Below, piece after piece: positions 2,371-25,628 of a stretch of DNA of 64,000 bases. The stretch spans positions 1 to 64,000 of IMG/VR virus record IMGVR_UViG_3300035689_000007; one strand, given 5' to 3'. The notes under the pieces are model-generated. The model worked only from the letters and a program-made list of their open reading frames with translations. It had not been told where the DNA came from and did no database searches. The stretch is from a virus. The translations under genes were made by a program, and so were the position numbers. Each line of letters opens with the position of its first letter. Within the stretch, counting starts at the first letter, position 1.

Positions 2371-4608
2371 ATGTTGGTCAAGAAACGCAGTGGCGAAGTT
2401 GAAGAATACAATGTGGAGAAAATACACAAAGTTTTAGAATGGGCCACTTATGATATAGCTAATGTTTCTTTTTCCGACATAGAGATGAACGCTCACCTAT
2501 CTTTACATGATGGTATAAGTACTAAAGAAATACATCAAATTTTAATTAAATCTGCCAATGATTTAACTTCTAAAACATGTCCTAATTATCAATATGTTGC
2601 CTCTCGTTTATTAAATATGTCTCTTCGTAAAGACCTGTGGGAAAGGCATGATTCTCCACCATCTTTGTATGATCATATATGTAAAAACGCCCAAGAAGAA
2701 GTGTATGATAAAAATCTTTTTACTAAGTGGACGAAGGATGATATAGAAGAAATAGAAAAACACCTAGACCATAATCGAGATTATTTATTTACATATGCCG
2801 GTTTGCAACAAATGATTGACAAATATCTTGTAAAAAATAGGAGTACAGGTAAAATTTATGAAACTCCACAATTTGCCTACATGTGTATAGCACTATCATT
2901 ATTTCACACAGTTTCAGAAGTATTAGAAGCGTATGAATACTTCTCTACACACAAAATAAATCTACCTACACCAATCATGGCCGGTGTAAGAACCAAAATA
3001 AAACAGTTTGCCAGTTGTGTTCTAGTCGATGTAGAGGACGATTTAAACTCTATTTTTGCTAGCGTACACGCTGTTGGTAAGTATACTGCAAGAAGGGCTG
3101 GCATCGGATTAAATATTGGAAGAATTAGACCTATCAATTCTAGTATACGTGGTGGCGAAGTAATACACACGGGCTTAATTCCTTATCTCAAAATATTTGA
3201 ATCCACAGTAAAAGCAACTAGTCAAAATGGTATTCGTGGTGGTTCTGCCACTGTGCATATCCCCTTCTGGCATTACGAGATAGAAGACGTTGTGTCTTTA
3301 AAGAATAATGCCGGAACTGACGATAATAGAGTTAGAAAGCTAGATTATTCTGTGCAATTTAATAAGCTATTCTACGAACGGCTAATTAATAATCAAGATA
3401 TAACTTTAATGAGTCCAGAAGAAACCGATGGACTTTATTCTGCAATGGGTGATGATTATGAAACATTTAAGAGATTATATGAGAAGTATGAAAATCACAG
3501 ATCGATAAAAATAAAAAAGAAAATCAATGCACGAAAACTAGCAGAAATATTTGCTAAAGAAAGACTCGAAACTGGTAGAATATATGTGATGAACATTGAT
3601 AATGCTAACGAACATGGTTCTTGGTCTGTACCAGTTTATATGAGTAATCTATGTCAAGAAATTATACATCCAACAAAGCCTATTCATGATATAGCAGATA
3701 AGGATGGAGAAATTGGAATCTGCATATTATCAGCCTTAAATCTACTAGAACTACACTCCGATCAAGATATTGAAAAGGCTTGTTCTATAACTGTTAAGAC
3801 TTTAGAATCCATTATTGATTATCAAGATTATCCAGTATTAGCTGGGGAAAACTTTACTAAGAATAGGAGATCTCTAGGTATAGGAATTACAAATTTTGCT
3901 GGATATCTAGCTAAAAATAAACTAAAGTATGATGATCCTGCAACTTTAAAGTTTGTACATACAGCTATGGAAAAAATACAATGGTATTTACTTAATGAGT
4001 CGTGCAAACTGGCAGAACAACTAGGACCGTGTAATAAGTTTAACGAAACAAAATATTCTCATAAACTTTTACCTATTGATTGGTACAAAAAAACAGTTGA
4101 CGAGCTAGTCAGTCCAGAGTATACTATGGATTGGGAGGGTTTGCGAAACAGAATAGCACAACACGGTCTGAGACACTCCACTCTTACTGCTATTATGCCA
4201 TGCGAGTCATCTAGTGTGATTCAAAATAGTACAAATGGAATTGAACCTGTGCGTAACTTAATTTCATATAAGAAAGCTAAGAACGGTGTACTTAAACAGT
4301 TAGTTCCAAATTATAGTTCCAGAAAGAATTTTTACACTTTAGCGTGGGAAATGCAAGACAACAAAGCTATATTAAACATTTGTGCTGTATTGCAAAAGTT
4401 TGTTGACATGAGCATTAGCGTAAATCTGTACTATAATTATTCACATTATCAAGATGGAAATATTCCACTAAGTACGTTGATTAAAGATCAAATATACGGT
4501 TATAAATACGGTATCAAAAATTTCTATTACTGTAACACTCCAGATTCTGATGGAGATACAGAAAAAGAATTATCTAACAACTGTGAAAGTGGAGCGTGTG
4601 CAATATGA
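2371..4608 (+). CDS. nrdA: Ribonucleoside-diphosphate reductase class Ia, alpha subunit
   Basis: N-terminal ATP cone (VKKRSG...EKI), PTPIMAG, FASCVL, catalytic SNLCQEI, KNFYY, C-terminal CESGAC. Confidence 0.97.
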   Translation: MLVKKRSGEVEEYNVEKIHKVLEWATYDIANVSFSDIEMNAHLSLHDGISTKEIHQILIKSANDLTSKTCPNYQYVASRLLNMSLRKDLWERHDSPPSLYDHICKNAQEEVYDKNLFTKWTKDDIEEIEKHLDHNRDYLFTYAGLQQMIDKYLVKNRSTGKIYETPQFAYMCIALSLFHTVSEVLEAYEYFSTHKINLPTPIMAGVRTKIKQFASCVLVDVEDDLNSIFASVHAVGKYTARRAGIGLNIGRIRPINSSIRGGEVIHTGLIPYLKIFESTVKATSQNGIRGGSATVHIPFWHYEIEDVVSLKNNAGTDDNRVRKLDYSVQFNKLFYERLINNQDITLMSPEETDGLYSAMGDDYETFKRLYEKYENHRSIKIKKKINARKLAEIFAKERLETGRIYVMNIDNANEHGSWSVPVYMSNLCQEIIHPTKPIHDIADKDGEIGICILSALNLLELHSDQDIEKACSITVKTLESIIDYQDYPVLAGENFTKNRRSLGIGITNFAGYLAKNKLKYDDPATLKFVHTAMEKIQWYLLNESCKLAEQLGPCNKFNETKYSHKLLPIDWYKKTVDELVSPEYTMDWEGLRNRIAQHGLRHSTLTAIMPCESSSVIQNSTNGIEPVRNLISYKKAKNGVLKQLVPNYSSRKNFYTLAWEMQDNKAILNICAVLQKFVDMSISVNLYYNYSHYQDGNIPLSTLIKDQIYGYKYGIKNFYYCNTPDSDGDTEKELSNNCESGACAI

Positions 4609-5849
4609 AACGTAGAAACTTCTTACTATCGACGGGTGTTGCTGGTATAACAGCAACTATGAATAATATCAGTTTTTCTATCAACTATAACAATGATCCA
4701 AAATTTACCTCAAATGATAATAGCGTTATATATCTATATCTTAGCGGTGGACCAACACACATTGAAACATTCAATCCGCTGCCATTAGCTCCATCTGATA
4801 GAAAATCTATTACTGGTAATATACATACCAAAATACCCGGATTTGCAATTGGTGGTATGTGGGATAAAATAGCAAATCAAACAAACAAAATTACGGTAGT
4901 AAATAGTTTCCACCACTCTGATCCAAACCATGAAAGTGCAACACACTGGATGTTAACGGGAGAAAGAACAACTCCAAATAGTCCACCTAAATGGCCTAGT
5001 TTTGGTAGCGTTATTTCTGGACAATATGGAACGAATATAAAAAATGGTCTACCTTCCTATATCAAGTTAAATACAATTCAATACGATGGTGCCGCATGGA
5101 TGGGTACTAAATACATGGGCTATACTGCTAGTAGAGAAGGTGTAGATGATCTGTTTATGAAAAATGAGAAGAAGTTCAAAGATAGAATGAAGATGTTAGA
5201 GGTACTTGAAAAGCATAGCCCAATACCGGATGATCGTAATGCTAACGCTTGGCTTGAATTAAGAAGTCAGGCTGTAGACGTATTAGTAGGAAAAGCTAGT
5301 GAAGCTTTCCTAATAGAAAAAGATAAAGACTTTGCTAACTACAAAGATAGCCAACTTGGCAAAGATATGCTTACTGCTATTAGACTTATAGAGGCCGGTG
5401 TAAAATTTGTTACAATTAATTACGGCGGATGGGATATGCATGATAACATACTAAACGGTCTAAAAAGTAAAGTACCGGCATTAGATCATGTATTGTCCAT
5501 GTACTTTAATTCAGCGGAGCAAAGAAATATCAACTATAAAAATCTATTAGTAATGAGTGGTGACTTTGGAAGAACTCCAAAAATCAATAAAGATGCTGGT
5601 AGAGATCATTGGCCGCATCTAGTTCCACTATTACTAGCTTGTGATACATATGAAATGAATAGAGTAATTGGTGCCTCTGATAGTAATGGAGAAAGGCCAG
5701 TAGACCATCCATTTGAACCAGAAGATTTAAAATGGACTATTTTAGAGCATATGGGTGTAAATAAAGATGCAGATTGGTATAGCATAGAAAATAGGCCAAT
5801 GATGTTCGTACAAGAAAACGCAAAAAATATTCTGAGGTATTCAATATAA
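4605..5849 (+). CDS. DUF1501-family protein with twin-arginine (Tat) signal
   Basis: MKRRNFLL Tat motif; LSGGPTHIETFNP, GWDMH and GDFGRTPKIN...GRDHWP match DUF1501 proteins. GGAG RBS and ATGA overlap with nrdA. Confidence 0.85.
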   Translation: MKRRNFLLSTGVAGITATMNNISFSINYNNDPKFTSNDNSVIYLYLSGGPTHIETFNPLPLAPSDRKSITGNIHTKIPGFAIGGMWDKIANQTNKITVVNSFHHSDPNHESATHWMLTGERTTPNSPPKWPSFGSVISGQYGTNIKNGLPSYIKLNTIQYDGAAWMGTKYMGYTASREGVDDLFMKNEKKFKDRMKMLEVLEKHSPIPDDRNANAWLELRSQAVDVLVGKASEAFLIEKDKDFANYKDSQLGKDMLTAIRLIEAGVKFVTINYGGWDMHDNILNGLKSKVPALDHVLSMYFNSAEQRNINYKNLLVMSGDFGRTPKINKDAGRDHWPHLVPLLLACDTYEMNRVIGASDSNGERPVDHPFEPEDLKWTILEHMGVNKDADWYSIENRPMMFVQENAKNILRYSI

Positions 5850-5850
5850 T

Positions 5851-6930
5851 ATGCAAACAATACTAAATAAAAAGAACGTCAATTATCTAAATCAACCTAT
5901 ATTTTTAGGTGAAGATCTATCATTACAGCGATATGATAAGTTTAAATATCCTGTCTTTTTTGATCTATATAAGAAACAGCTAGAATTTTTCTGGAGGCCA
6001 GAAGAAATAGAATTAAAAAAGGATCGAAACGATTTTAAGAATGACAGTATTATGAGTCCAAACGAAAGATTCATTTTTACGTCGAATCTAAAATATCAAA
6101 CAATGATGGATTCTGTGATATGTCGTGGAGTTCCAACTTTAGTAAATTATGTTTCTAATCCAGAATTAGAAGCATGTATGAACGTGTGGCAATTTTTTGA
6201 GCAAATCCATAGTTATAGTTATACGTATATCATCAAAAATGTGTATAGCGATCCTAGCGAGATTCTAGATAGTTGTCTTACCGATAAAGAGATCTTAAAA
6301 AGGGCAGATGTAGCAATTAAGGAGTATAATGCTCTTAGGGAGCTTGGTAATTCCACAAAGAAAAAAGATCTTAAAAAACAGATATACTTAACCTTAATTA
6401 GTGTAAATATATTAGAAGCAATTCGTTTTTATGTCTCATTTATTTGTGCGTTTGCCTTTGCGGAAAATAAAAAGATGATAGGCAATGCAGATATCATCAA
6501 ACTTATTAAGAGAGATGAGGCTTTGCATCTATATAATACCCAAGAAATAATTAAGATTTTGAGGACTGTTCCAGAAGAAGGTTTTGTCGAAATAGCTTCC
6601 GAGTGCGAAGAGGAGGCTTGTAAAATGTTTGATTCTGCTGCTGCGGAAGAAAAAGCTTGGTCACAGTACCTGTTTAAAGATGGCTCAATTATAGGATTAA
6701 ATGACAGGGTAATGTGTGAATATATAGATTGGTTGTGCATGACTAGGCGTAAGAATATAGGATTGCCATACGAAAAAGGATATAAAAATCCAATAGCTGG
6801 ATGGACTGATCCTTGGATGAATAGTGAATCTGTACAAGTTGCACCACAAGAACATGAAATTACTTCATATAAAATTGGTGCTAGTAAGAACGATTTAGAA
6901 GAAGTTGACTTAGGAGGTTTTAGTCTATGA
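5851..6930 (+). CDS. nrdB: Ribonucleoside-diphosphate reductase class Ia, beta subunit
   Basis: FFWRPEE, EQIHSYSY, EAIRFYVSF, RDEALH di-iron ligands, VAPQE...SY. Confidence 0.97.
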   Translation: MQTILNKKNVNYLNQPIFLGEDLSLQRYDKFKYPVFFDLYKKQLEFFWRPEEIELKKDRNDFKNDSIMSPNERFIFTSNLKYQTMMDSVICRGVPTLVNYVSNPELEACMNVWQFFEQIHSYSYTYIIKNVYSDPSEILDSCLTDKEILKRADVAIKEYNALRELGNSTKKKDLKKQIYLTLISVNILEAIRFYVSFICAFAFAENKKMIGNADIIKLIKRDEALHLYNTQEIIKILRTVPEEGFVEIASECEEEACKMFDSAAAEEKAWSQYLFKDGSIIGLNDRVMCEYIDWLCMTRRKNIGLPYEKGYKNPIAGWTDPWMNSESVQVAPQEHEITSYKIGASKNDLEEVDLGGFSL

Positions 6931-7370
6931 GTTGTACAAAGTTTATGGATTATATACAGGTATCATTACTAAATAGTAATGCTAAAATACCCACAAAAGC
7001 TCATAATGATGATGCTGGATTTGATTTATATTCTAGTGTTGATATAAACATAGCACCTAAATCAAGAGCTACAATCAATACATCAATAGCAATAGCGATG
7101 CCAAGCAATTTTGCCGGTTTAATTTGGCCTAGATCTGGCCTATCTGTTAAACATGGTATAGATGTTTTGGCTGGAGTGGTAGATAGTGGTTATAGGGGAG
7201 AAATACTAGTATGTCTATACAATACTTCAGATGATATCGTAGAGATTCATACTGGGGATAGAATCGCTCAGATTATATTCCAAGAGGTTCCTCGCGTATC
7301 ATTATCAGTCAATGCAACGTTAGGTTCCTCGCAACGAGGGAGTAATGGCTTTGGAAGCACAGGCACATAA
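6927..7370 (+). CDS. dut: Trimeric dUTPase
   Basis: AGFDL, PRSGLS, GVVDSGYRGE, GDRIAQ, RGSNGFGSTG. Confidence 0.97.
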   Translation: MSCTKFMDYIQVSLLNSNAKIPTKAHNDDAGFDLYSSVDINIAPKSRATINTSIAIAMPSNFAGLIWPRSGLSVKHGIDVLAGVVDSGYRGEILVCLYNTSDDIVEIHTGDRIAQIIFQEVPRVSLSVNATLGSSQRGSNGFGSTGT

Positions 7371-8037
7371 TAACAACCGAAAAGATAAAAAAGCAAATAA
7401 GAAAAAAACCAGTTCCACAAATTCGCTAGAAGCTAAGACAGAAAATCAAAAAAATTATATACGCTCTATTATAGAAAACGATATTATTTTTTGTACTGGA
7501 CCGTCTGGCAGTGGTAAATCTTTTATTGCCGCTGGACTAGCTGCACAAAAATTACTAAAAGATGAAATAGATACTATTATTGTAACTAGACCTTTAGTAT
7601 GCACTGGAAGAGACATAGGCTCACTACCCGGAGAATTGAATGAAAAAATTAAACCATATCTACAGCCAATGGAAGAAAATTTAAGGTTTTTCCTTGGTAG
7701 AGATTTATTTGGTTTATATTTTAATCAACGTAGAATTAGATTTGAACCTCTGGAAACTATGCGTGGATCTACATTTCATAAATCTTATATGATTTTAGAT
7801 GAAGCTCAAAATTGCACTCTAGAACAAATTAAAATGTTCATAACTAGAATGGGACAGGATAGTAAAGTGCTTATAAATGGAGATAATAAACAAACCGATA
7901 TCTATACTAAATGTGGATTAGATTTTTGTATGGATAGGTTGTCTAGCGTTCAAGGTGTCGGAATCTGTCGATTGGAGTATCATGATATACAGAGGAACGG
8001 AATTTTAGGGGCTGTGCTTTACGCATTAGAAAAGTAA
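7345..8037 (+). CDS. phoH: PhoH-family ATPase
   Basis: GPSGSGKS, TRP, LPGELNEK..PY, MRGSTF, DEAQN, TRMG, GDNKQTD, DIQRNG. Confidence 0.95.
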   Translation: MALEAQAHNNNRKDKKANKKKTSSTNSLEAKTENQKNYIRSIIENDIIFCTGPSGSGKSFIAAGLAAQKLLKDEIDTIIVTRPLVCTGRDIGSLPGELNEKIKPYLQPMEENLRFFLGRDLFGLYFNQRRIRFEPLETMRGSTFHKSYMILDEAQNCTLEQIKMFITRMGQDSKVLINGDNKQTDIYTKCGLDFCMDRLSSVQGVGICRLEYHDIQRNGILGAVLYALEK

Positions 8038-8381
8038 TGCTATACGATTATCAATGTGCTAGTTGTCAATATTTTATGATCGATGTATATCAATCGATTC
8101 ACGATGCCCCATTAGATACATGTCCTAATTGTGATAGTAAATCTTTGGAAAGAATAATTAGCGGTGGACTTGGGGCATTTGTTAAAGATGTAAAAACTAT
8201 TGGTCAACTAGCGGACCATAATTGGAAAAAATTAGGATCATACGAAAAATCAGACAGGGTGCATCAAGACAAAAGGGTGATAGAAGAAAAACCCCAGTTT
8301 TATGGAAATGCTAGCAAGTCCCAAATAAGTAAAATGACAGAAGCACAAAAACAAAAATACATTATAACAGGTGAAACATGA
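8037..8381 (+). CDS. FmdB-like zinc-ribbon protein
   Basis: YDYQCASC...CPNC...LERIIS. Confidence 0.75.
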   Translation: MLYDYQCASCQYFMIDVYQSIHDAPLDTCPNCDSKSLERIISGGLGAFVKDVKTIGQLADHNWKKLGSYEKSDRVHQDKRVIEEKPQFYGNASKSQISKMTEAQKQKYIITGET

Positions 8382-8716
8382 AGTATGTTGAGAAGAATAC
8401 AGACCTATCTGAAATAGATACTAATATAACGGTTACCTTCTTTGACAAGAAGGGAAATATTACAGATGATAATAGAAATGCTTTTGGACAAATCATTACA
8501 AAGCAAAAGGCAGATGGTTCTAATCATAAACAGTATCAAATATCAACATATAATAATGTGTTATATGACCCAATGGGTGCAGACGGTCACAGAAAAAATA
8601 TCAATCTTGTACTCAAAACTGTGGACCAACAAACGTTTGATTATTATATCATGTACCTAAAAACAAAAAATTCATTATATATGACTAGAGCGCAAAGGAG
8701 TTTTATCAATGGCTAA
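8378..8716 (+). CDS. Hypothetical protein
   Basis: Coupled ORF in the operon (AGGTG RBS, ATGA overlap). Confidence 0.75.
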   Translation: MKYVEKNTDLSEIDTNITVTFFDKKGNITDDNRNAFGQIITKQKADGSNHKQYQISTYNNVLYDPMGADGHRKNINLVLKTVDQQTFDYYIMYLKTKNSLYMTRAQRSFING

Positions 8717-9005
8717 AAAAGGACCGATTGGGAAAGTAGAAGCATTTTATATAGACAACAATTACAAGAACATGACTGTTGCAGAAATCGCTACAGATCT
8801 AGATAGAACAATAACATCTATAGAAAGCTACATTAAAAAGAATCATGTCAGACAAAAGCCAACAATTACTGTCGGTGATCAATTTGCTAGAACTAATGGT
8901 GTTACGATCATGACAGAAAATGCGTCAAGTATGTCTGATGAAAAAAGAAGAAATAATAAAACTATTAACAAGCCTAAAACATCTTGTATAACTAAAATAA
9001 AATGA
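8709..9005 (+). CDS. Small basic protein, possible helix-turn-helix
   Basis: AAGGAG RBS; MTVAEIATDLDRTITSIESYI resembles an HTH. Confidence 0.6.
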   Translation: MAKKGPIGKVEAFYIDNNYKNMTVAEIATDLDRTITSIESYIKKNHVRQKPTITVGDQFARTNGVTIMTENASSMSDEKRRNNKTINKPKTSCITKIK

Positions 9006-9436
9006 GCTATATATTTGGCAAAGAACAATTCCTACAAAGGTATAAACAGCTTTCTAGCCAAGACAGAAGAAATATATGGATCATTGTTCATACATCAGAT
9101 GAATCTGATATTTATTTAGAAGACTATAGTGATTGGCTAACGATTGGGAATTATTGTAACGCTAACAAGTTAACTATTAGTAAAATTTCTCTACAGTATA
9201 AAAGTCATGTTGTAGATTTTGATACTACTAATGCCGATGGTGTTTATTTATCTAAAACGGCAAAAGGTACACTTGGTGGTGAAACAAAACAATGCTATAG
9301 CATTGGTGTGTTAAGGGAAAATAAAATATATCGCACACTATATGCTATACCAGAATTGATAGAAGATCTAAAATTAGAAGACGAAGTTGAAAACTGTTTG
9401 AAAGAGGCTTTAGTTGTATATGACAAAGAAAGATAA
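9002..9436 (+). CDS. Hypothetical protein
   Basis: ATGA-coupled ORF. Confidence 0.7.
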   Translation: MSYIFGKEQFLQRYKQLSSQDRRNIWIIVHTSDESDIYLEDYSDWLTIGNYCNANKLTISKISLQYKSHVVDFDTTNADGVYLSKTAKGTLGGETKQCYSIGVLRENKIYRTLYAIPELIEDLKLEDEVENCLKEALVVYDKER

Positions 9437-9941
9437 ACCTTCATTATTCAACCAAAAGTATCAATCTCAATGGTCAGAAACTCACAAGTATAAACATATA
9501 CACACTGGTGAGTATTGCACTTTTGAAGCATATGTTGCTGAATATATTGTACTTAGAAGGGCTGAAAAACTAAATCTAGGTAAACCTTCCTATAAGTTTT
9601 GGACTAAGGGAGATCCTAATCACTGGTTGTGGAAAAAACAACTTGGTGCAGCAAGACAGCTTAAAAAGAAATATAGCGAAGAAGCAATATTGAGAGCAAT
9701 CAAATCAAAAGAATTTGACAAATTGCTAGTACTTGGTGTGCAAGATGGTAGGGGCTACAAGATTAATCCGCTTGCGGAACGTGTTATCGCAATGTATGAT
9801 AGTAGGGTAAGGGAAGAAGCAGACAAGCAAAAGGCACTTGAAGCACCAGTTACTACCGAACCTCCACAACAATTGGAACTAAGAAAAACTCAAACATCAA
9901 CTAAAAATAAGACAATGTTAAATAAATTGAGGGACTTATGA
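9420..9941 (+). CDS. Hypothetical protein
   Basis: ORF in the operon; first ATG at 9420 after GAGG. Confidence 0.7.
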   Translation: MTKKDKPSLFNQKYQSQWSETHKYKHIHTGEYCTFEAYVAEYIVLRRAEKLNLGKPSYKFWTKGDPNHWLWKKQLGAARQLKKKYSEEAILRAIKSKEFDKLLVLGVQDGRGYKINPLAERVIAMYDSRVREEADKQKALEAPVTTEPPQQLELRKTQTSTKNKTMLNKLRDL

Positions 9942-17413: not shown

Positions 17414-18403
17414 ATGCCCCTTCCAAACAGAAATAAAGATGAAAAAAGAGACGATTTTGTTGCTAGATGTATGCAAAACGACACAATGAAAAGTGAATAT
17501 CCAGATCAAGCTCAAAGAGTAGCTATATGTATTAGGCAGGCTACCGCTGATTGTAGCATGATAGAAGCAGCAGACTTCGAATTACAAATGGAATCTGGAT
17601 ATGAAGAAGAATTGACAGAAGATAATTTCTACATACCCGTAGCAGCAGAATATGTAGATTTTGGAGAAACAGCAGAAGAATGGGATTGTGCTAAAGAACG
17701 TCCCGGATTGTGGGAGAATATTAGAAAGAAAAAGGAAAGAGAAGGTAAAAACTATAAGCCAGCAAAGCCGGGAGATCCAGATAGACCAGATAAAGACGCT
17801 TGGAAAAAAGCCCAATCCGATAGCGGAAACGAAATGGCTATTGAACAACTACAAAAAATGCATGATCAATTAATGGGAGTTGTCATGAAATTAAAACTTA
17901 TGGAAGTTGAATTTCAAGATTGGACAAAAGATATGATTTCTAAAGCAGAAGTATATATTCAAAATGTCTTTGATTTTGTTACATATTATGAACCCGGAAA
18001 ATATGAAGACGAATATGTAGAGGAACCATCAGAAATAGAAGATGAGGAAACAGAATCTAAATATCAATATGAAGATCCAGTTACTAGAGAAGTATTTACA
18101 TATACGCAGAGAAAAACATACAAAAAAGATGGCAAGACTTTAATCTATCTAGGTGAAGCTAGTGAATATCAAGGTAGAAAGGTACAACTAAATAAGCCAT
18201 TTAGAACACCAAAGGGTCCAAAAAAGTTTAGCGTATACGTTAAGAACGAAAAGGGTAATGTGGTCAAGGTAAATTTTGGTGATCCAAATATGAAAATAAA
18301 GAAAAATATACCGGAACGAAGAAAAAGCTTTAGAGCAAGACACAATTGTGATAATCCCGGCCCCAAGTGGAAGGCTAGATATTGGTCATGCAAAGCTTGG
18401 TAA
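17414..18403 (+). CDS. Modular phage protein with acidic core and basic C-terminal domain
   Basis: AAGGAG RBS. Modules PLPN...FVARCM, GLWENIRKK and VNFGDPNM...RRKSFRARHNC...ARYWSC resemble small domains recurrent in large phages. Confidence 0.75.
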   Translation: MPLPNRNKDEKRDDFVARCMQNDTMKSEYPDQAQRVAICIRQATADCSMIEAADFELQMESGYEEELTEDNFYIPVAAEYVDFGETAEEWDCAKERPGLWENIRKKKEREGKNYKPAKPGDPDRPDKDAWKKAQSDSGNEMAIEQLQKMHDQLMGVVMKLKLMEVEFQDWTKDMISKAEVYIQNVFDFVTYYEPGKYEDEYVEEPSEIEDEETESKYQYEDPVTREVFTYTQRKTYKKDGKTLIYLGEASEYQGRKVQLNKPFRTPKGPKKFSVYVKNEKGNVVKVNFGDPNMKIKKNIPERRKSFRARHNCDNPGPKWKARYWSCKAW

Positions 18404-18639
18404 AGAAATGGAAGGATCATCTCGACTCTAATAACATGACATACTGTGAACATTGGATGTTTGCAGTGTGTCATGGGTTGAGATGTATAAAAGCCGGATT
18501 TTGTCTTATATTACATGGTAATTTTCCATGTTTTTTAGTGCATACTGGTAGTGAATTGATACATAAATTAGAACAAGATTTTACTAAGAGAGAAAAGGAT
18601 ATTGATGATGAAAAAACCAATACTAAGACCGTTAAGTAA
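18388..18639 (+). CDS. Small His-motif membrane-associated protein (DUF6356-like)
   Basis: HL...MTY.EH..FA...G...LH..FP pattern; family name recalled from memory. Confidence 0.55.
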   Translation: MQSLVKKWKDHLDSNNMTYCEHWMFAVCHGLRCIKAGFCLILHGNFPCFLVHTGSELIHKLEQDFTKREKDIDDEKTNTKTVK

Positions 18640-18703
18640 TGGCCCTAGATCTTCTGACAAAGAACCAAAAAAAAGACCTCTCTTGCCGTTGAAAAATTCT
18701 TGA
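18605..18703 (+). CDS. 32-aa basic, Pro-rich microprotein
   Basis: MMKKPILRPLSNGPRSSDKEPKKRPLLPLKNS*, AAGGA RBS upstream; too short for the ORF track. Confidence 0.45.
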   Translation: MMKKPILRPLSNGPRSSDKEPKKRPLLPLKNS

Positions 18704-18717
18704 TCGTAGGGTAAGAT
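18689..18717 (+). promoter_or_regulatory. Sigma70-type promoter upstream of the N-terminal dnaE gene
   Basis: TTGAAA(18689-18694)-17 nt-TAAGAT(18712-18717), followed by GGAGA RBS and TTG start at 18754. Confidence 0.55.
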
Positions 18718-18753
18718 AGAGTATCGACACGTTGCACATAGGAGAAATATACA

Positions 18754-20346
18754 TTGAATTGGTTTCCACTTAAAAACTTGACACATTACAGTTTGTTAAA
18801 AGCGTTTTCTAAGCCAAAAGAATTAGCATCTCTATGTGCTAAGTTCGATTATCCAGCCTGTGGAATATGTGATTATAAATCTATATCTGGTGCAGTGTCG
18901 TTTTTTCAAGCTTGTAAAAATGTTGGTATAAAACCAATTATTGGCTGCACGTTTGATAATAACACCGTGTTTGCAAAAAATAAAAATGGATGGCTGGATC
19001 TAATTACTCTTGTATCTTCAATGGATGATAACGGTCAAATACCAAATGACATCGTTCAAGATATCAACGATAGAAAAAATCTTATATATGTAAATGAGAT
19101 CGGCATTAACAATAGTTTTTATACTAAACCGGAACATGCGAACTTACACAGAGTATTATTATGCTCAGAATTAAAGACTACACTTCCAAAGATTCAAAAG
19201 CAGGTTCGTAAAGGAGAATTATCTGAAGATATATCAGACTACTTTAAAAGTGATAATAAGCATATTGTTCCACAAAAAGTATGCAAGAAATTACAAGAAG
19301 TTTATAACACATGCGAGGATTATGACATTCTTAGTAAGCCAATTTTACCAAAGTTTGAGTGTCCAAATAATTTATCCGAAGAGGAATATCTTAAAACGTT
19401 GGCTAGGAATGGATGGAGAGAATTGCTAATTAACACTGGCAAGGTAAAAGACAGTCATAACAAAGATATCTATCTAAAAAGATTTAACCTAGAACTAGAA
19501 GTAATTAAAAATGCAAACTTGTTCGGATATTTTCTCATAGTACAAGATATTATGAACTATGTCCAAAAAATGGGATGGATGATAGGACCGGGAAGAGGTT
19601 CTGCCGCAGGGTGTTTAATATCATACCTTATAGGTATAACACAAATAGATCCAGTAGAATATGATTTATTGTTTGAAAGGTTCTATAATGCTGGCAGAAA
19701 TTCAGATGATCATATATCATTACCAGATATAGATATGGATGTGCCAGCACAAAAAAGAGATTCTGTAATACAGTACTTAAAAGAAAAATATGGACATCAA
19801 CATGTAAGTCAAATGATCACTTTTGGAAGATTGCAGGGAAGAAGTGCCATCAAAGAAGTATTACGAATTAATGAGGCTTGTTCTTTTGCTGAGATGAATG
19901 CTATCACAAAGAGTGTTCCAAATGAAGCAGAAATTTCAGATCAGCTTGCAGAGATGGATGATGAAGATCGATCAATTATCAAGTGGTCACTAATAAATAG
20001 ATCTAAAGAATTACAAGATTTCTGTTATCTAGATGATAATGGAGCATTGCAGGGACAATATTCTGAATTTTTTCAACAAGCAATAGAAATAGAAGGGACA
20101 TTTAAAACACAAGGCAAACACGCTGCCGGGGTTGTTATATCAGCAAATCCTCTGAATGGTGTATGCCCAATGGTTAAACCAAAACATGGTACAGAAAAGG
20201 TGGCTGGACTAGAAATGTCGGACTTAGAGGCTTTAGGTCATGTTAAGTTTGATGTTCTTGGGATTAATCTGTTAGATAAGTTGATGAAAATTAAAGACAT
20301 AACAATGAACGATACTAACAAAGCATCGGAGACAATATATGGCTAA
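18754..20346 (+). CDS. dnaE: DNA polymerase III alpha, N-terminal part (degenerate PHP, palm, thumb)
   Basis: THYSLL, GIKPIIG, YFLIVQD, GPGRGSAAG, LLFERF, PDIDMD, GKHAAGVVI, VKFDVLG, then stop. Confidence 0.93.
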   Translation: MNWFPLKNLTHYSLLKAFSKPKELASLCAKFDYPACGICDYKSISGAVSFFQACKNVGIKPIIGCTFDNNTVFAKNKNGWLDLITLVSSMDDNGQIPNDIVQDINDRKNLIYVNEIGINNSFYTKPEHANLHRVLLCSELKTTLPKIQKQVRKGELSEDISDYFKSDNKHIVPQKVCKKLQEVYNTCEDYDILSKPILPKFECPNNLSEEEYLKTLARNGWRELLINTGKVKDSHNKDIYLKRFNLELEVIKNANLFGYFLIVQDIMNYVQKMGWMIGPGRGSAAGCLISYLIGITQIDPVEYDLLFERFYNAGRNSDDHISLPDIDMDVPAQKRDSVIQYLKEKYGHQHVSQMITFGRLQGRSAIKEVLRINEACSFAEMNAITKSVPNEAEISDQLAEMDDEDRSIIKWSLINRSKELQDFCYLDDNGALQGQYSEFFQQAIEIEGTFKTQGKHAAGVVISANPLNGVCPMVKPKHGTEKVAGLEMSDLEALGHVKFDVLGINLLDKLMKIKDITMNDTNKASETIYG

Positions 20347-21019
20347 TAGAGACTATATCATTTTTGACTTTGAAACCGGATCTAGAAATCCACACAAAAC
20401 TCAACCAACCCAAATTGCCGCAATAGCACTAGATGGAAGAAATTTTTCAGTCAAAGGTACTTTTAATAGTGAAATATGTCCAATTTTTGATGAAGAAGAA
20501 GCAATAAAACTTGGATTAGATCCAGTAGAAGATGAAGCTCTCAAAATAACACATAAAACAAAAGAACAGCTAGAACAAGCTCCAGATGTAAAATCTGTTT
20601 GGAAAAAATTTGCTAAGTTCGTAGAACAATACAATTGGAAAAATGATCCATTTTTTAATCCTGTTCCAGTAGGATTCAATATTATTGGGTTTGACATGAT
20701 TATTGTGAATAGGTTGTGTCAAGAATATGGCCCTTGGGACAAACAAAAAAACGTACAGAAAATATTTAGTAAAGTCTATAAGATAGATATTATGGATATG
20801 ATATTTTCTTGGACTGAGGGCGATCCAAGCATAAGATCAATAAGTATGGATTCTTTAAGAGACATTATGGGATTATCAAAAGATAATGCACATGACGCAT
20901 TACAAGACGTAAAAGATTCAGCAAATATCTTCATTAAGATGATGAAAACCCATAGAGCGGTTTATAGAAATATAGAATTTGAACAAGCTTTTGCTAATGG
21001 AAATTTATATGTCAAATAA
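20339..21019 (+). CDS. dnaQ: DEDDh 3'-5' exonuclease (Pol III epsilon-like)
   Basis: ExoI DFETG, ExoII FNIIGFD, ExoIII HDALQD. Confidence 0.88.
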   Translation: MANRDYIIFDFETGSRNPHKTQPTQIAAIALDGRNFSVKGTFNSEICPIFDEEEAIKLGLDPVEDEALKITHKTKEQLEQAPDVKSVWKKFAKFVEQYNWKNDPFFNPVPVGFNIIGFDMIIVNRLCQEYGPWDKQKNVQKIFSKVYKIDIMDMIFSWTEGDPSIRSISMDSLRDIMGLSKDNAHDALQDVKDSANIFIKMMKTHRAVYRNIEFEQAFANGNLYVK

Positions 21020-21692
21020 TATAGTAGCTTTTAGTAATTACGATAATAACTTTTCGGCTGTTAACAGTATAACATATCCACACAATAAAACATACTTTGA
21101 TAAGCATGACATAGAATATATTGTGTTTAATAACAGCGCAATAAATATGATTAAAACATCTAGTCAACATGTAACTAAGTGCTATTATATTAAGTGGTTA
21201 TTACTTCAACACATGCTAGAAACAAGGTATGATGTTGATTATTTTTTTGCTATAGATACAGATATAATCATATGTGACTTTGATATAGATTTAAGGCTTT
21301 TTACTAAGCTATCGAATAGGGATATTTTGTTGTGTTCTGTAGAAGACTGTTCGCCAAATATGTTTTGGAATATAAATGCTGGATCTATGATTGTAAAAAA
21401 TAGCGATGCTGTTAAATCTTTCATACGTGCATATTTAGAGATAGCAAAATTGTACGACTATAATATTATTGACCAAGTACTATTGCAGGGATTTATAGAT
21501 AAAAAGCCAGAATACAGACATCTATTTGCTATATTTCCATCTTGCACATTTAATCACGGTGGAGTTGATTCATTCTTATATCACGATTGTAGCATTAGTA
21601 CATCTAATAGATCTTTAGAAGAATGTATAGCAACAAAGACACGCAATTTAAAAACCGCTATTAATAAACTAACCAATAAACATGAACAATAA
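21009..21692 (+). CDS. Glycosyltransferase, GT34 (GMA12/MNN10)-like
   Basis: IKW, FFAIDTDIII (DxD), INAGSMIVKN, DQ..L. Confidence 0.65.
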   Translation: MSNNIVAFSNYDNNFSAVNSITYPHNKTYFDKHDIEYIVFNNSAINMIKTSSQHVTKCYYIKWLLLQHMLETRYDVDYFFAIDTDIIICDFDIDLRLFTKLSNRDILLCSVEDCSPNMFWNINAGSMIVKNSDAVKSFIRAYLEIAKLYDYNIIDQVLLQGFIDKKPEYRHLFAIFPSCTFNHGGVDSFLYHDCSISTSNRSLEECIATKTRNLKTAINKLTNKHEQ

Positions 21693-22056
21693 ACAAACAA
21701 TACAACATAGAAAAAAATGGATAGATACATATAAAATATCCAGAGGTTGCGATATTTGTGGCTACAATAAGCATCCAGCCAGTTTATGTTTTGATCATTT
21801 GCCTAATTTTGAGAAAGCAGAAATAACTAAAAACGGATGTTCAAAAAGAAGTTGTGCTGGTGGTATGTTTATGATGTATGGTAAAAAATACGATGTTGAA
21901 GAGTTGATTTCTGAGATCAAAAAATGTAGAATACTGTGTCACAATTGCCACATGGAGTGTACCCATAAAAAAAACATACATCTCAATATTATTCCAGAAA
22001 TGACAGTTGAAGATTTATTCACAAAGTTGAGAAATGAAAACTATGAAATACAATGA
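21682..22056 (+). CDS. HNH endonuclease
   Basis: CDICGY...LCFDHL...EIKKCRILCHNCH. Confidence 0.8.
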   Translation: MNNKQTIQHRKKWIDTYKISRGCDICGYNKHPASLCFDHLPNFEKAEITKNGCSKRSCAGGMFMMYGKKYDVEELISEIKKCRILCHNCHMECTHKKNIHLNIIPEMTVEDLFTKLRNENYEIQ

Positions 22057-23602
22057 TGATAAAACATGGCAGCTATTTGCAGAAGGCAAAACTAAGGGAA
22101 TCTTTCAATTAGAAAGCAACCTTGGAAAGTCTTGGTCTAAAAAGTTGGCCCCAACAAACATAGAAGAATTATCTGCTTTAATTGCTATTATTAGACCGGG
22201 ATGTTTAAAAGCATATGTAGATGGAAAATCTATGACACAACATTTCGTAGATAGAAAACACGGAAGAGAAGAGATAACATATCTTCATCCATCGCTAGAA
22301 GAAGTGTTGAAAACAACATATGGCGTTCTAGTATATCAAGAACAATCTATGCGTATAGCACAAAAAATAGCTGGATTTGATTTACAAGAAGCAGATATGT
22401 TAAGAAAAGCCATAGGAAAGAAGAAGGCTGATCTTATGGCTAAAGTGAAAAAGTCTTTTATAGAGGGTGCTGCAAAGGTTAATATAGTTACTAAAGAAGA
22501 GGCAGAAGAAATATTCGGCTGGATAGAAAAATCTTCAAGATACGCTTTTAATAAGTCTCATAGCATTTCATACGCCGTGTGTTCATATTGGAGTGCTTAT
22601 CATAAAGCTCATTTTACCAAAGAGTTTTTTCTTTCTTATTTATACTACGCTCATGAAAAACAAGACCCACATCAAGAAATATATGAATTAGTTTCTGAAG
22701 CTAAAATATTTGATATACAGACTAAAACTCCTAGTGTTAAAAACTTTGCTGAAAAATTCAACATAAAGCATAACAAAATCTATTTTGGATTAAAGGATAT
22801 CAAATCTTTGAGTGGAAAAAATGGAGACGCAATAATAGAAATTATTGGCGAAATACAAAAAGAACACAAGAAAAAAATTCATGAGTTTACTTGGTTAGAA
22901 ATATTATTATTTATGTCTCCAAGAATCAATTCTACAGCATTCAAGGCTTTAGTATCTATTGGATTCTTTAGAGATTTAAAAGATCAAGTAACAAGAAACA
23001 AAGCTTTATATGACTTTGAAATCATAAAAACTCTAACTAAAGCAGAGTTTAATTGGGTACAACAAAATTATCATACTAATAAGTGGGAAGATTTAATATC
23101 ATGTTTAAGATCTTTAGCACCGACAAAGAAAAATGGGGGAGGAACGCACAGTGAGGATAGAAAACAGTCTATAGAAAATGAAATCAACTTATTAATTAAT
23201 CCTCCGTATGATTTAGAAGATGATCCAAACTGGATTATTGATCAAGAAACTAAATTCTTAGGATGTCCCGTCAGCATGACTAAGATAGAAATATCAGACA
23301 CATCATCCGCAAATACTTACTGTAAAGATATTGTTAATGGAAAACGTGGTAAAGATTTGTGCATTGTGGGTAATATAGTTAAGTTGTCAGACTATAAAAT
23401 CAAGAAAGGTGAATCAAAAGACAAATTAATGTCATTTTTGACTATTGAAGACGAAACTTGTATTCTAGATAGTGTAATAGTTTTCCCAAAAGTTAAAGAA
23501 AAATATAAGTATATCCTATACGAAGGTAATAATTTACTTTTTTGCGGCTCTGTAAGCGGACAAGATAATGCTTTCATAGTTGATAAAATTCATGAAATTT
23601 AG
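22034..23602 (+). CDS. dnaE: DNA polymerase III alpha, C-terminal part (fingers, HhH, OB fold)
   Basis: DDKTW, GIFQLES, RPG, RKHGRE, TYGVLVYQEQ, ADMLRKAIGKK, YAFNKSHS, FGLKDIK, MSFLTIEDET...VFP. Confidence 0.93.
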   Translation: MKTMKYNDDKTWQLFAEGKTKGIFQLESNLGKSWSKKLAPTNIEELSALIAIIRPGCLKAYVDGKSMTQHFVDRKHGREEITYLHPSLEEVLKTTYGVLVYQEQSMRIAQKIAGFDLQEADMLRKAIGKKKADLMAKVKKSFIEGAAKVNIVTKEEAEEIFGWIEKSSRYAFNKSHSISYAVCSYWSAYHKAHFTKEFFLSYLYYAHEKQDPHQEIYELVSEAKIFDIQTKTPSVKNFAEKFNIKHNKIYFGLKDIKSLSGKNGDAIIEIIGEIQKEHKKKIHEFTWLEILLFMSPRINSTAFKALVSIGFFRDLKDQVTRNKALYDFEIIKTLTKAEFNWVQQNYHTNKWEDLISCLRSLAPTKKNGGGTHSEDRKQSIENEINLLINPPYDLEDDPNWIIDQETKFLGCPVSMTKIEISDTSSANTYCKDIVNGKRGKDLCIVGNIVKLSDYKIKKGESKDKLMSFLTIEDETCILDSVIVFPKVKEKYKYILYEGNNLLFCGSVSGQDNAFIVDKIHEI

Positions 23603-23631
23603 TTGTTTTTTTGATGTGTACCAGCTAAAAT
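23603..23631 (+). promoter_or_regulatory. Candidate sigma70-type promoter for the ssb/glycosyltransferase operon
   Basis: TTGTTT-17 nt-TAAAAT, then GGAG RBS at 23641. Confidence 0.4.
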
Positions 23632-23649
23632 ATAAAGATAGGAGTTAAT

Positions 23650-23973
23650 ATGAATAATTGTTGTTTTACTGGCTATTTAGTTGATAATCCTAATACTTCT
23701 GTGGTAAACGATGTTGTATTAGCAGAATTTACAATAGTGGTATATACTTATCGTAGAACTAAAAGTACTGGAGAAAAAAGTAGAATTCCAACATATATAA
23801 AGTGTGAAGCTTGGCATACTGGGGCAGAAACTATAGAACGGTTTGCTACGAAAGGTACTAAAATCAGTATACAAGCATCTGCTAAAAATCCGTCAAAAAA
23901 TAGTGATGATATAATTTTTAGAGTTAATGAATTCGATTTATGTGACACAGAAGACTTTGAGGATTGTATATGA
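23650..23973 (+). CDS. ssb: Single-stranded DNA-binding protein
   Basis: MN...TGYLVDNP, FTIVV, CEAW..GAE, KGTKI; short acidic tail. Confidence 0.8.
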   Translation: MNNCCFTGYLVDNPNTSVVNDVVLAEFTIVVYTYRRTKSTGEKSRIPTYIKCEAWHTGAETIERFATKGTKISIQASAKNPSKNSDDIIFRVNEFDLCDTEDFEDCI

Positions 23974-25628
23974 GAAAGAAACGTATTTTATTTTGTAGCG
24001 AGGCCACTTTTCTTAATACCGGCTACGCCACATACACAAGGGAAATATTACAATATCTATATCAAACTGATAAATACGAATTGGCAGAATTAGCTGCTTA
24101 TGGAGATAGCGGCGATAGAAGATCTCTATATATACCTTGGAAATTTTATGGGGCTACCCTACCAAGAAACGCATCCGAAGATCAAAAAAGATTATATCAA
24201 TCAAAGTATTCTTATCAGTTTGGAGAGTACGCTTTTCATGATGTATGTCTTGATTTTAAGCCAGATATAGTGTGTGATATACGAGATTTTTGGATGTTAG
24301 AATTTGTTGAGAGGTCACCATATAGACCTTTCTTTAAGTGGTGTATTATGCCAACTGTCGATGCCTATCCACAGGCAAGACAATGGATTTCTACATATCA
24401 ATCAGCAGACGCTTGTTTAACTTATTCTGATTGGGCTGGCGAAGTATTAAAAAAACAGTCTAATGGAAATATTAATTACTTAGGATCTGCACCACCTTCA
24501 GCACATGCAGCGTATTGCATGATTAGAGACAAGAACGAATCTAGAAAATACTTAGGTATACCAGATCATTGCAAAGTTGTTGGAACCGTGATGAGAAACC
24601 AACGTAGGAAGTTATATCCAGATTTATTTAAAGCGTTTAGATTATTACTTGACAAAGTAGAAGATCCACAAAATTATCTTTTGTATTGTCATACAAGTTA
24701 TCCAGATATGGGCTGGGACATACCAGAATTATTACAAACATACAATTTATCGTCAAACACAGTATTTACATACGTTTGTACTGAAACCAAGAAGCCATTT
24801 GCTTCTTTTTTTCAAGGCCCACACGTAGTATCACCATTTACTAAAAAATTAACTGGTATTATGTCTAACGTTAAGTGCGGTATAGATTATCCAGAATTAG
24901 CAACTATTATGAATAGTTTTGATATATATGTACAATATGCTAATTCAGAAGGTTTTGGTTTACCACAAGTAGAAGCTGCCGCCTGTGGAATACCAGTAGC
25001 GTCTGTAAATTATTCAGCAATGGAAAGTGTTGTTAAACAATTAGGTGCAATACCACTAGATGTAAAGGCTCTATATCAAGAAATGGAAACTGGATGTATG
25101 AGGGCTGTTCCAGATAATCAAGATACTGCACAAAAACTATATGAATTTTTTCAGCAACCATCATTCAAAAGAAGTAAACTTGGTTTTGATATAAAACAGA
25201 ATTTTTTGAAATATTTTCAGTGGGATATTAGCGGATCTGTATGGGAAAGATATTTTGATAGCGTAGAAATATTGGACGAAAGAGAAACTTGGTTTTCTAC
25301 CCCTAGAATATTTAAACCGGCATCAAAGCCAGATTTCAAAAAGTTTAGTGATATACAGGAATATGCCACGTTTCTAATTAAACATGTTCTATGTAAAGAA
25401 GAAAAAATTAATACGTTTTTTCATTCTAAACTGGTTAGAGATTTACTATATGGTTTTACTACCGGTATTTCTGGCGGGGTATATCAAAATGATAGCTCTA
25501 TGATAGCTGATGGTAATGTTCAAAAAATATCTTTTGATTTTGATAGAGCTTATGAATATATGCTATCAATACGACTAGAAGAAAATGCAATAGAACAAAA
25601 AAGAGCGGAGGTATTTAAATTACTATGA
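23970..25628 (+). CDS. Glycosyltransferase family 4 (GT-B)
   Basis: TGYA, RNQRRK, FDIYV, SEGFGLPQVEAAACGIPV. Confidence 0.9.
   Translation: MRKKRILFCSEATFLNTGYATYTREILQYLYQTDKYELAELAAYGDSGDRRSLYIPWKFYGATLPRNASEDQKRLYQSKYSYQFGEYAFHDVCLDFKPDIVCDIRDFWMLEFVERSPYRPFFKWCIMPTVDAYPQARQWISTYQSADACLTYSDWAGEVLKKQSNGNINYLGSAPPSAHAAYCMIRDKNESRKYLGIPDHCKVVGTVMRNQRRKLYPDLFKAFRLLLDKVEDPQNYLLYCHTSYPDMGWDIPELLQTYNLSSNTVFTYVCTETKKPFASFFQGPHVVSPFTKKLTGIMSNVKCGIDYPELATIMNSFDIYVQYANSEGFGLPQVEAAACGIPVASVNYSAMESVVKQLGAIPLDVKALYQEMETGCMRAVPDNQDTAQKLYEFFQQPSFKRSKLGFDIKQNFLKYFQWDISGSVWERYFDSVEILDERETWFSTPRIFKPASKPDFKKFSDIQEYATFLIKHVLCKEEKINTFFHSKLVRDLLYGFTTGISGGVYQNDSSMIADGNVQKISFDFDRAYEYMLSIRLEENAIEQKRAEVFKLL

Follow-up and report, generated by a model that had tools for sequence, protein, structure and literature searches.

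A dnaE gene divided around an exonuclease gene in a widespread group of uncultured aquatic phages

Two dnaE halves and the genes between them

The subject of this analysis is a dnaE gene, encoding a DNA polymerase III (Pol III) alpha subunit, that is found as two separate open reading frames (ORFs) at positions 18,754 to 23,602 of a stretch of DNA from an uncultured phage. The stretch, referred to here as the window, comprises positions 1 to 64,000 of the 78.6-kb IMG/VR virus record IMGVR_UViG_3300035689_000007, for which completeness is estimated at ~50%. Five closely packed ORFs on the + strand, followed by an SSB gene, make up the locus:

18754..20346, + strand: dnaE N-half (p1), 530 aa, with a shortened PHP domain, palm and thumb, the three catalytic Asp residues, and a 27-aa tail
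20339..21019, + strand: DnaQ/epsilon-like DEDDh 3'-5' exonuclease, 226 aa (Pfam RNase_T, PF00929, 2.7e-13; phrog_192, DNA polymerase exonuclease subunit)
21009..21692 (longest ORF from 20979), + strand: GT34-like glycosyltransferase gene (Pfam Glyco_transf_34, 3.1e-5, just above the cut-off)
21682..22056, + strand: free-standing HNH endonuclease gene, 124 aa, with a CHNCH motif (phrog_2255 and phrog_3106, 1.5e-13)
22034..23602, + strand: dnaE C-half (p2), 522 aa, with the rest of the fingers, the HhH region, and an OB-like C-terminal part
23650..23973, + strand: SSB gene (Pfam SSB, 3.8e-8), directly 3' of p2 and syntenic in most relatives

The first polymerase gene, p1, starts at a TTG codon with AGGAG 9 nt upstream and matches the Pfam family DNA_pol3_alpha over the whole profile (PF07733, 1-260/260, E = 1.7e-69). 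Its PDIDMD and KFDVLG motifs align to the catalytic motifs of the E. coli enzyme (Asp residues D401, D403, and D555), and residues D325, D327, D329, and D500 are invariant in 42 relatives. A sequence-only reading of this DNA had placed all of the catalytic Asp motifs in the first gene and had this gene end ~27 aa past VKFDVLG, and the ORF at 18754-20346 agrees on both counts. The first part of the 27-aa tail is a conserved helix, INLLDKLMKI. Near the protein's opposite terminus, the PHP match is confined to residues 9-95 and to profile positions 5-100 of 164. This region (p1 residues 1-180, positions 18754-19300) is ~100 aa shorter than in P0038, the unsplit sister protein described below, and in L039-type and L105 relatives, and the window reads LTHYS where L105 has HVHSHYS (H(V/L)HSHYS in relatives), such that the first His of the HxH motif is lost. 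Judged from these features, the PHP domain of the window's subclade is probably inactive, with its nuclease activity presumably lost.

The exonuclease gene follows directly: there is an 8-nt overlap between its ATG and the p1 stop, and a GGAG lies 7 nt upstream of the ATG. Residues D10 and E12 (Exo I, DxE), D119 (Exo II, D), and H185 and D190 (Exo III, Hx4D) show no variation among 40 relatives. Since the PHP domain is degenerate in the window, proofreading probably rests on this DEDDh protein. Its C-terminal tail, FE(K/Q)AFANGxLYV (FEQAFANGNLYVK in the window, 20940-21019), is likewise conserved in 40 relatives, including those of the L082 type in which the exonuclease gene is not nested, which makes it a candidate for a peptide that contacts the polymerase or a clamp.

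The second polymerase gene, p2, begins MKTMKYNDDKTW...GIFQLES and lies 1,687 nt 3' of the p1 stop, which bears out the claim of a second half starting at YNDDKTW...GIFQLES some 1.7 kb downstream. As had also been read from the letters, three genes on the same strand lie between the halves (20339-21019, 20979/21009-21692, and 21682-22056), and the fingers are in p2 with YAFNKSHS present and intact. The fingers motifs GIFQLES, YQEQ, LRKAIGKKK, and FNKSHS are all found in p2, which matches DNA_pol3_finger (PF17657, 23-164/166, E = 1.9e-50) and aligns over the fingers to residues 591-851 of E. coli alpha; Q102, E103, R124, K130, F172, N173, and H176 are invariant in 34 relatives. The p2 protein also resembles HHH_6, with a score just short of the cut-off (24.8 against 25.6 bits). 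The match to the OB part is not significant in p2 itself, while in P0038 this part matches tRNA_anti-codon (4.5e-8) and forms a beta barrel in the predicted model. No tau-binding tail is found in p2.

The region is recovered repeatedly from the environment. Four lake metagenome runs (2016, 2020, 2023, and 2024) yielded contigs of 5.5-14 kb that span positions 18328-24200 without insertions or deletions, and because these are four independent assemblies, the division of dnaE is not an assembly artefact. Overall, the window stretch was recovered in at least 24 DNA runs from lake water or freshwater, dating from 2016 to 2024.

The breakpoint and the question of splicing

The positions at which the two halves align to intact polymerases adjoin one another. 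Against phrog_405, a profile of the full-length polymerase, p1 reaches position 619 and p2 starts at 625, and in alignments to PDB structures, p1 residue 508 corresponds to E. coli alpha 563 and p2 residue 6 to E. coli alpha 591. We conclude from these alignments, with which the Pfam matches agree, that the halves are collinear and non-overlapping, as had been proposed. A further comparison is with P0038 (1,102 aa), a contiguous protein with 53% identity to p1 and 42% to p2. P0038 runs through the window's break, where it reads ...LDVLGVDILSKVMKIAQDKNLNIND|FSDMNVW, with its residue 600 aligning to p1 residue 520 and its residue 601 to p2 residue 6. Because P0038 in this way joins p1 520 to p2 6, only 10 residues at the tail of p1 and 5 at the head of p2 are specific to the junction in the window.

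We predicted the structure of P0038 with AlphaFold2 from an alignment in which both types of half were represented (mean pLDDT 93.2, pTM 0.87). Pol III alpha structures are matched along the entire model (TM 0.62-0.79), which is closer to DnaE (E = 1e-55) than to PolC (1e-26). In this model, residues 573-581 form the strand bearing the third catalytic Asp, and two helices follow (582-594 and 604-612); the break falls in the loop that separates them (595-603). The earlier placement of the break at the palm/fingers boundary holds only approximately: the break is near there, but by E. coli numbering it is ~25-30 residues past the boundary.

The small number of junction-specific residues also bears on whether the halves could be joined into a single chain by RNA splicing, protein trans-splicing, or ribosomal bypass, which we regard as extremely unlikely. 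In its favor, Intein_splicing domains are common in p2 relatives at around residues 53, 122, and 170-180, and one relative, L082, has the look of a split-intein 'fractured gene', but at another site. Known split-intein halves need 88-105 and 33-54 residues (PMC2677866), however, and with only 10 + 5 residues available, there is no room for them in the window. Neither p1 nor p2 has a Pfam match to Intein_splicing, and the junction lacks a Cys/Ser/Thr +1 context, in keeping with the intein-free junctions that had been claimed. At the RNA level, there is no Rfam match across 20200-22200, either at the gathering threshold or at E <= 1, and the compact spacers of relatives (0-16 nt, or overlaps) leave no space for an intron core. 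The intervening DNA is also nearly all coding, with the ORFs in different frames and each having its own start codon and Shine-Dalgarno sequence. All sequence-level tests therefore agree with an intein-free dnaE in two genes.

Inteins do occur in this family. They are found in the p2 relatives P0001, P0005, P0006, P0010, P0025, and P0107, one of them with a LAGLIDADG domain, and they occupy at least three sites, the last of those listed above being the FNKSHS site known from cyanobacteria. In L082 (4312-9687; also L083), the exonuclease gene is directly upstream of dnaE, which is continuous at the window's breakpoint (5001-7685, 894 aa) and broken near FNKSHS instead, with a 295-aa ORF (7715-8602) in the gap before a 373-aa C-piece (8566-9687). 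This dnaE may be a split-intein 'fractured gene'.

Distribution and history of the split

A scan of viral contigs with p2 returned 279 relatives, of which the best 80 were fetched; 79 of these hold all three parts (45-78% identity to p2). In every one (79/79 IMG/VR relatives), p1, the exonuclease gene, and p2 occur in this order as separate ORFs, mostly in different frames, and the breakpoint, which the sequence-only reading had suggested surveying in related phages, is shared within a few residues. The usual spacing is an 8-nt overlap between p1 and the exonuclease gene, followed by an overlap or a gap of <=16 nt between the exonuclease gene and p2. An exhaustive, profile-free protein search of 1.84 billion cluster representatives (50%-identity clusters) gave 4,988 matches below 1e-30; among the best 150 of these (E < 1e-103), 144 are p2-only, 5 include the palm, and none is fused to the exonuclease. 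We therefore take the split to be ancient and to occur very widely in uncultured aquatic phages.

The HNH gene that directly precedes p2 in the window, its stop overlapping the p2 start, raises the question of whether this endonuclease, together with the GT34-like gene, recently broke an intact dnaE, as with mobE in the nrdA of Aeh1. Genes of several endonuclease types do lie at these junctions in various relatives. This explanation is nonetheless very improbable, as 76 of the 79 split relatives lack the HNH gene, and dnaE is still divided around the exonuclease gene in them, in many cases with overlapping ORFs and no insert at all. Moreover, the p1 end of the break is not where the HNH gene lies; it occupies the exonuclease/p2 junction. 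Counting the window, it is found at this junction in only 4/80 genomes (the others being L014, L026, and L037), with 59-68% identity, a divergence about equal to that of the flanking genes. The GT34-like gene has no counterpart at the exonuclease/p2 junction in 80 relatives and is cargo in this junction, outside the conserved cassette. Both genes are later arrivals and not the cause of the break, although an endonuclease that invaded earlier, when the clade arose, could conceivably have been.

More generally, both junctions are hot spots at which homing endonuclease genes and cargo genes are inserted. Across relatives, they contain at least three kinds of HNH gene as well as Endo VII-like, GIY-YIG/T5orf172-like, and PD-(D/E)XK-like genes; other contents are FkbM methyltransferase, UDG, and UDP-glucose dehydrogenase genes. 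In five relatives (L044, L045, L047, L049, and L055), p1 and the exonuclease gene are separated by ~6 kb of additional genes, one of them UDP-glucose dehydrogenase-like, placing the halves >7 kb apart. A small ORF of 71-87 aa with the motif YQVH[CS]D is found between p1 and the exonuclease gene in 34 more distant relatives (L039-L080; for example, L040:7063-7311); neither Pfam nor PHROG gave a match for it, and the window lacks it. A variant of the window's locus lacking the insert was considered on the basis of one low-depth joint (20917 to 22367, run X9) and rejected as too weak, the short side having 27 letters at 90% likeness.

The contiguous alleles fall in two well-supported clades that are nested among split forms, one comprising P0038 and P0063 and the other P0082, P0107, and P0033. 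Placing all contiguous forms together with the outgroup on one side of the tree lowers its log-likelihood by 71 units (AU p = 0.029, for a group that was named after the tree had been seen), and parsimony requires 3 changes. The history thus involves either one old fission with at least two re-fusions or several fissions.

A Cys-rich N-terminal extension of ~30-40 aa (M..YxFxCGCxF...LPxIxID) is carried by 108/150 p2 representatives, with examples of its FxCGCxF motif among P0003-P0150 and in L105:5992-7647, L046, L056, and L078. It is absent from the window's subclade and from 5/5 contiguous alleles, and may serve split forms specifically as a docking element.

A putative non-covalent Pol III core

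Taken together, these observations make it quite probable that we are looking at an old, lineage-wide fission of dnaE, in which a three-gene cassette encodes a Pol III core held together non-covalently. The conserved unit would be the tight cassette of dnaE-N, the dnaQ-like exonuclease gene, and dnaE-C, to which the GT34-like and HNH genes have been added in the exonuclease/dnaE-C junction. The cassette genes are probably co-transcribed and translated as separate chains, with coupling through overlapping stop and start codons. In the proposed arrangement, the N-half would bring the catalytic palm, the thumb, and the first helix after the KFDVLG strand, while the C-half, starting in the loop after that helix, would bring the remaining fingers and the DNA-binding C-terminal parts, such that the two chains could rebuild the Pol III alpha fold without a peptide bond. 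Non-covalent assembly of the two chains is the most likely mode. The DEDDh protein would carry out proofreading, with its conserved C-terminal tail as a candidate contact by which it joins; a complex prediction for p1 and the exonuclease scored 0.00, which says nothing either way.

The genomic setting of the halves is that of a replication module. Upstream of p1 are genes for a PD-(D/E)XK nuclease, a dNMP kinase, a primase, a DnaB-type helicase, and a RecA-like protein. In three relatives that are 94-100% complete, one with terminal repeats, there is one PF07733 match each, in an open frame of 544-550 aa, and no family A or B polymerase (PolA or PolB). The complete relatives thus have a single DnaE palm gene and neither PolA nor PolB, which leaves the split enzyme as the sole phage polymerase that could be detected.

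Searches of the complete relatives for a beta clamp or a delta-prime-type clamp-loader gene came up empty, which suggests that some parts of the host replisome are probably in use. This lends something to the view that the halves are not one enzyme, one of them being a relic or having another role while a host polymerase replicates the phage. We nevertheless consider this very unlikely, as both halves are similarly conserved in the aligned sets (46-71% identity for p1 and 38-78% for p2) with invariant catalytic residues, they always occur together in one cassette, and they sit in a module with DnaB, primase, SSB, and RecA-like genes.

Several points weigh against a non-covalent Pol III core. 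Contiguous alleles exist, and the split is thus not obligatory for this polymerase type. RNA-level processing is excluded by an argument from sequence only. Co-transcription, association of the chains, activity, and docking of the exonuclease are properties that we infer. Finally, reliance on a host polymerase is formally conceivable.

A stronger version, in which the DEDDh protein bridges the polymerase pieces at the palm-fingers hinge to form an obligate heterotrimer, is speculative and in our estimation unlikely. If true, C-family polymerases would have a third mode of proofreader attachment, in addition to the contact between epsilon and PHP in E. coli and the domain inserted into PHP in PolC. 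Such a bridge would also account for the constant presence of the exonuclease gene in the gap and for the Cys-rich extension being present on most split C-halves but on no contiguous alleles.

Replicative C-family polymerases are treated as single-chain enzymes, and to our knowledge, the only well-known natural split among them is the cyanobacterial one, which is repaired by an intein. When compared to single-chain DnaE with a separate epsilon (E. coli 2HNH and 5FKU; T. aquaticus 2HPI and 4IQJ; M. tuberculosis 7PU7), the phage proteins are alike in domain order, in the catalytic Asp triad and fingers motifs, and in having a separate DEDDh proofreader, with sequence matches of 1e-47 to 1e-50. 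One difference is that the single polypeptide of DnaE is replaced by two, from ORFs 1,687 nt apart in the window and also separate in 79/79 relatives, with the cut at approximately E. coli residue 585-590. In addition, the phage PHP domain is ~100 aa shorter and has lost the first His of HxH, the tau-binding C-terminal domain is missing, and the exonuclease gene is nested between the halves. In PolC (G. kaustophilus 3F2B), also a C-family enzyme, a DEDDh exonuclease is similarly 'inside' the polymerase gene order, but there it is fused within the PHP domain of one chain, whereas here it is a separate gene after the palm.

Cyanobacterial DnaE with its split intein and the metagenomic 'fractured genes' (Dassa et al. 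2009, PMC2677866) provide a precedent for a dnaE in two genes. Fractured genes have a free-standing homing endonuclease gene between their halves (PMC2677866), and the window does contain one (HNH, 21682-22056), but as this holds for 4/80 genomes only, it is not a defining feature; the constant gene in the phage gap is the exonuclease gene and not an endonuclease gene. Unlike split-intein DnaE, the phage form has no intein halves, is broken at another site with FNKSHS intact, and presumably yields a protein that is never ligated. The ribozyme core of phage genes interrupted by group I or II introns was not found by Rfam across 20200-22200.

Closer parallels are found among intein-less split enzymes of phages, in which an essential enzyme is made as two chains with inserted DNA or genes between the halves, as seen in gp43 of Aeromonas phages 25 and 44RR, NrdA of Aeh1, and gp39/gp60 of T4 (PMC2988022). 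Reassembly has been shown for two of these: 43A and 43B, the two parts of gp43 in Aeromonas phage 25, co-purify and have activity, and activity was likewise found for the divided NrdA of Aeh1 (PMC2988022). These cases are a B-family polymerase, a ribonucleotide reductase, and a topoisomerase in few phages, whereas the present one is a C-family polymerase, is clade-wide, and has a partner gene in the gap. T4-like jumbo phages also encode a Pol III alpha catalytic module as two proteins (Iyer et al. 2021, PMC7824862), in the form of a minimal split version whose genes lie far apart and accompany a family B polymerase. That module lacks PHP and other domains, whereas here a full-length DnaE is encoded by adjacent genes as the sole polymerase. 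We found no publication on a split dnaE/exonuclease cassette in a literature search of incomplete coverage.

It appears that abundant freshwater and marine phages of a large, diverse group replicate their genomes with a Pol III alpha that is cut between palm and fingers. The cut represents a natural, evolution-tested split site for engineering two-piece C-family polymerases, and the system would allow fingers closure and fidelity to be studied across a non-covalent joint. Within one locus, moreover, fission, a nested partner gene, inteins, homing endonucleases, and apparent re-fusions can be traced together over hundreds of genomes.

The phage itself has no close cultured relative among GenBank phages: blastn gave only a 181-nt match at 68% to Listeria phage fragments, and the top identity in tblastn against GenBank phages was 27%. 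GC content is 30-35% across the arm that holds the region. A tRNA scan found none, and promoter and terminator scans were at chance level, with no + strand terminator-like site in 18754-23602.

Finally, we note two further observations. In L104 (4274-6264), two overlapping ORFs (4274-5404 and 5395-6264) together make up the N-half, the interruption falling directly ahead of PDIDxD; either another fission or, in this 6.7-kb contig, a frameshift error could be the reason; phrog_13169 and phrog_12219 suggest a split near PDIDxD in other phages too. Upstream of p1, at window positions 18207-18413 (the 3' end of a 329-aa ORF at 17414-18403), the summed contig depth is several-fold higher in all four lake runs, and the many short, divergent contigs there point to a segment that is common to other phages or repeated in the community.

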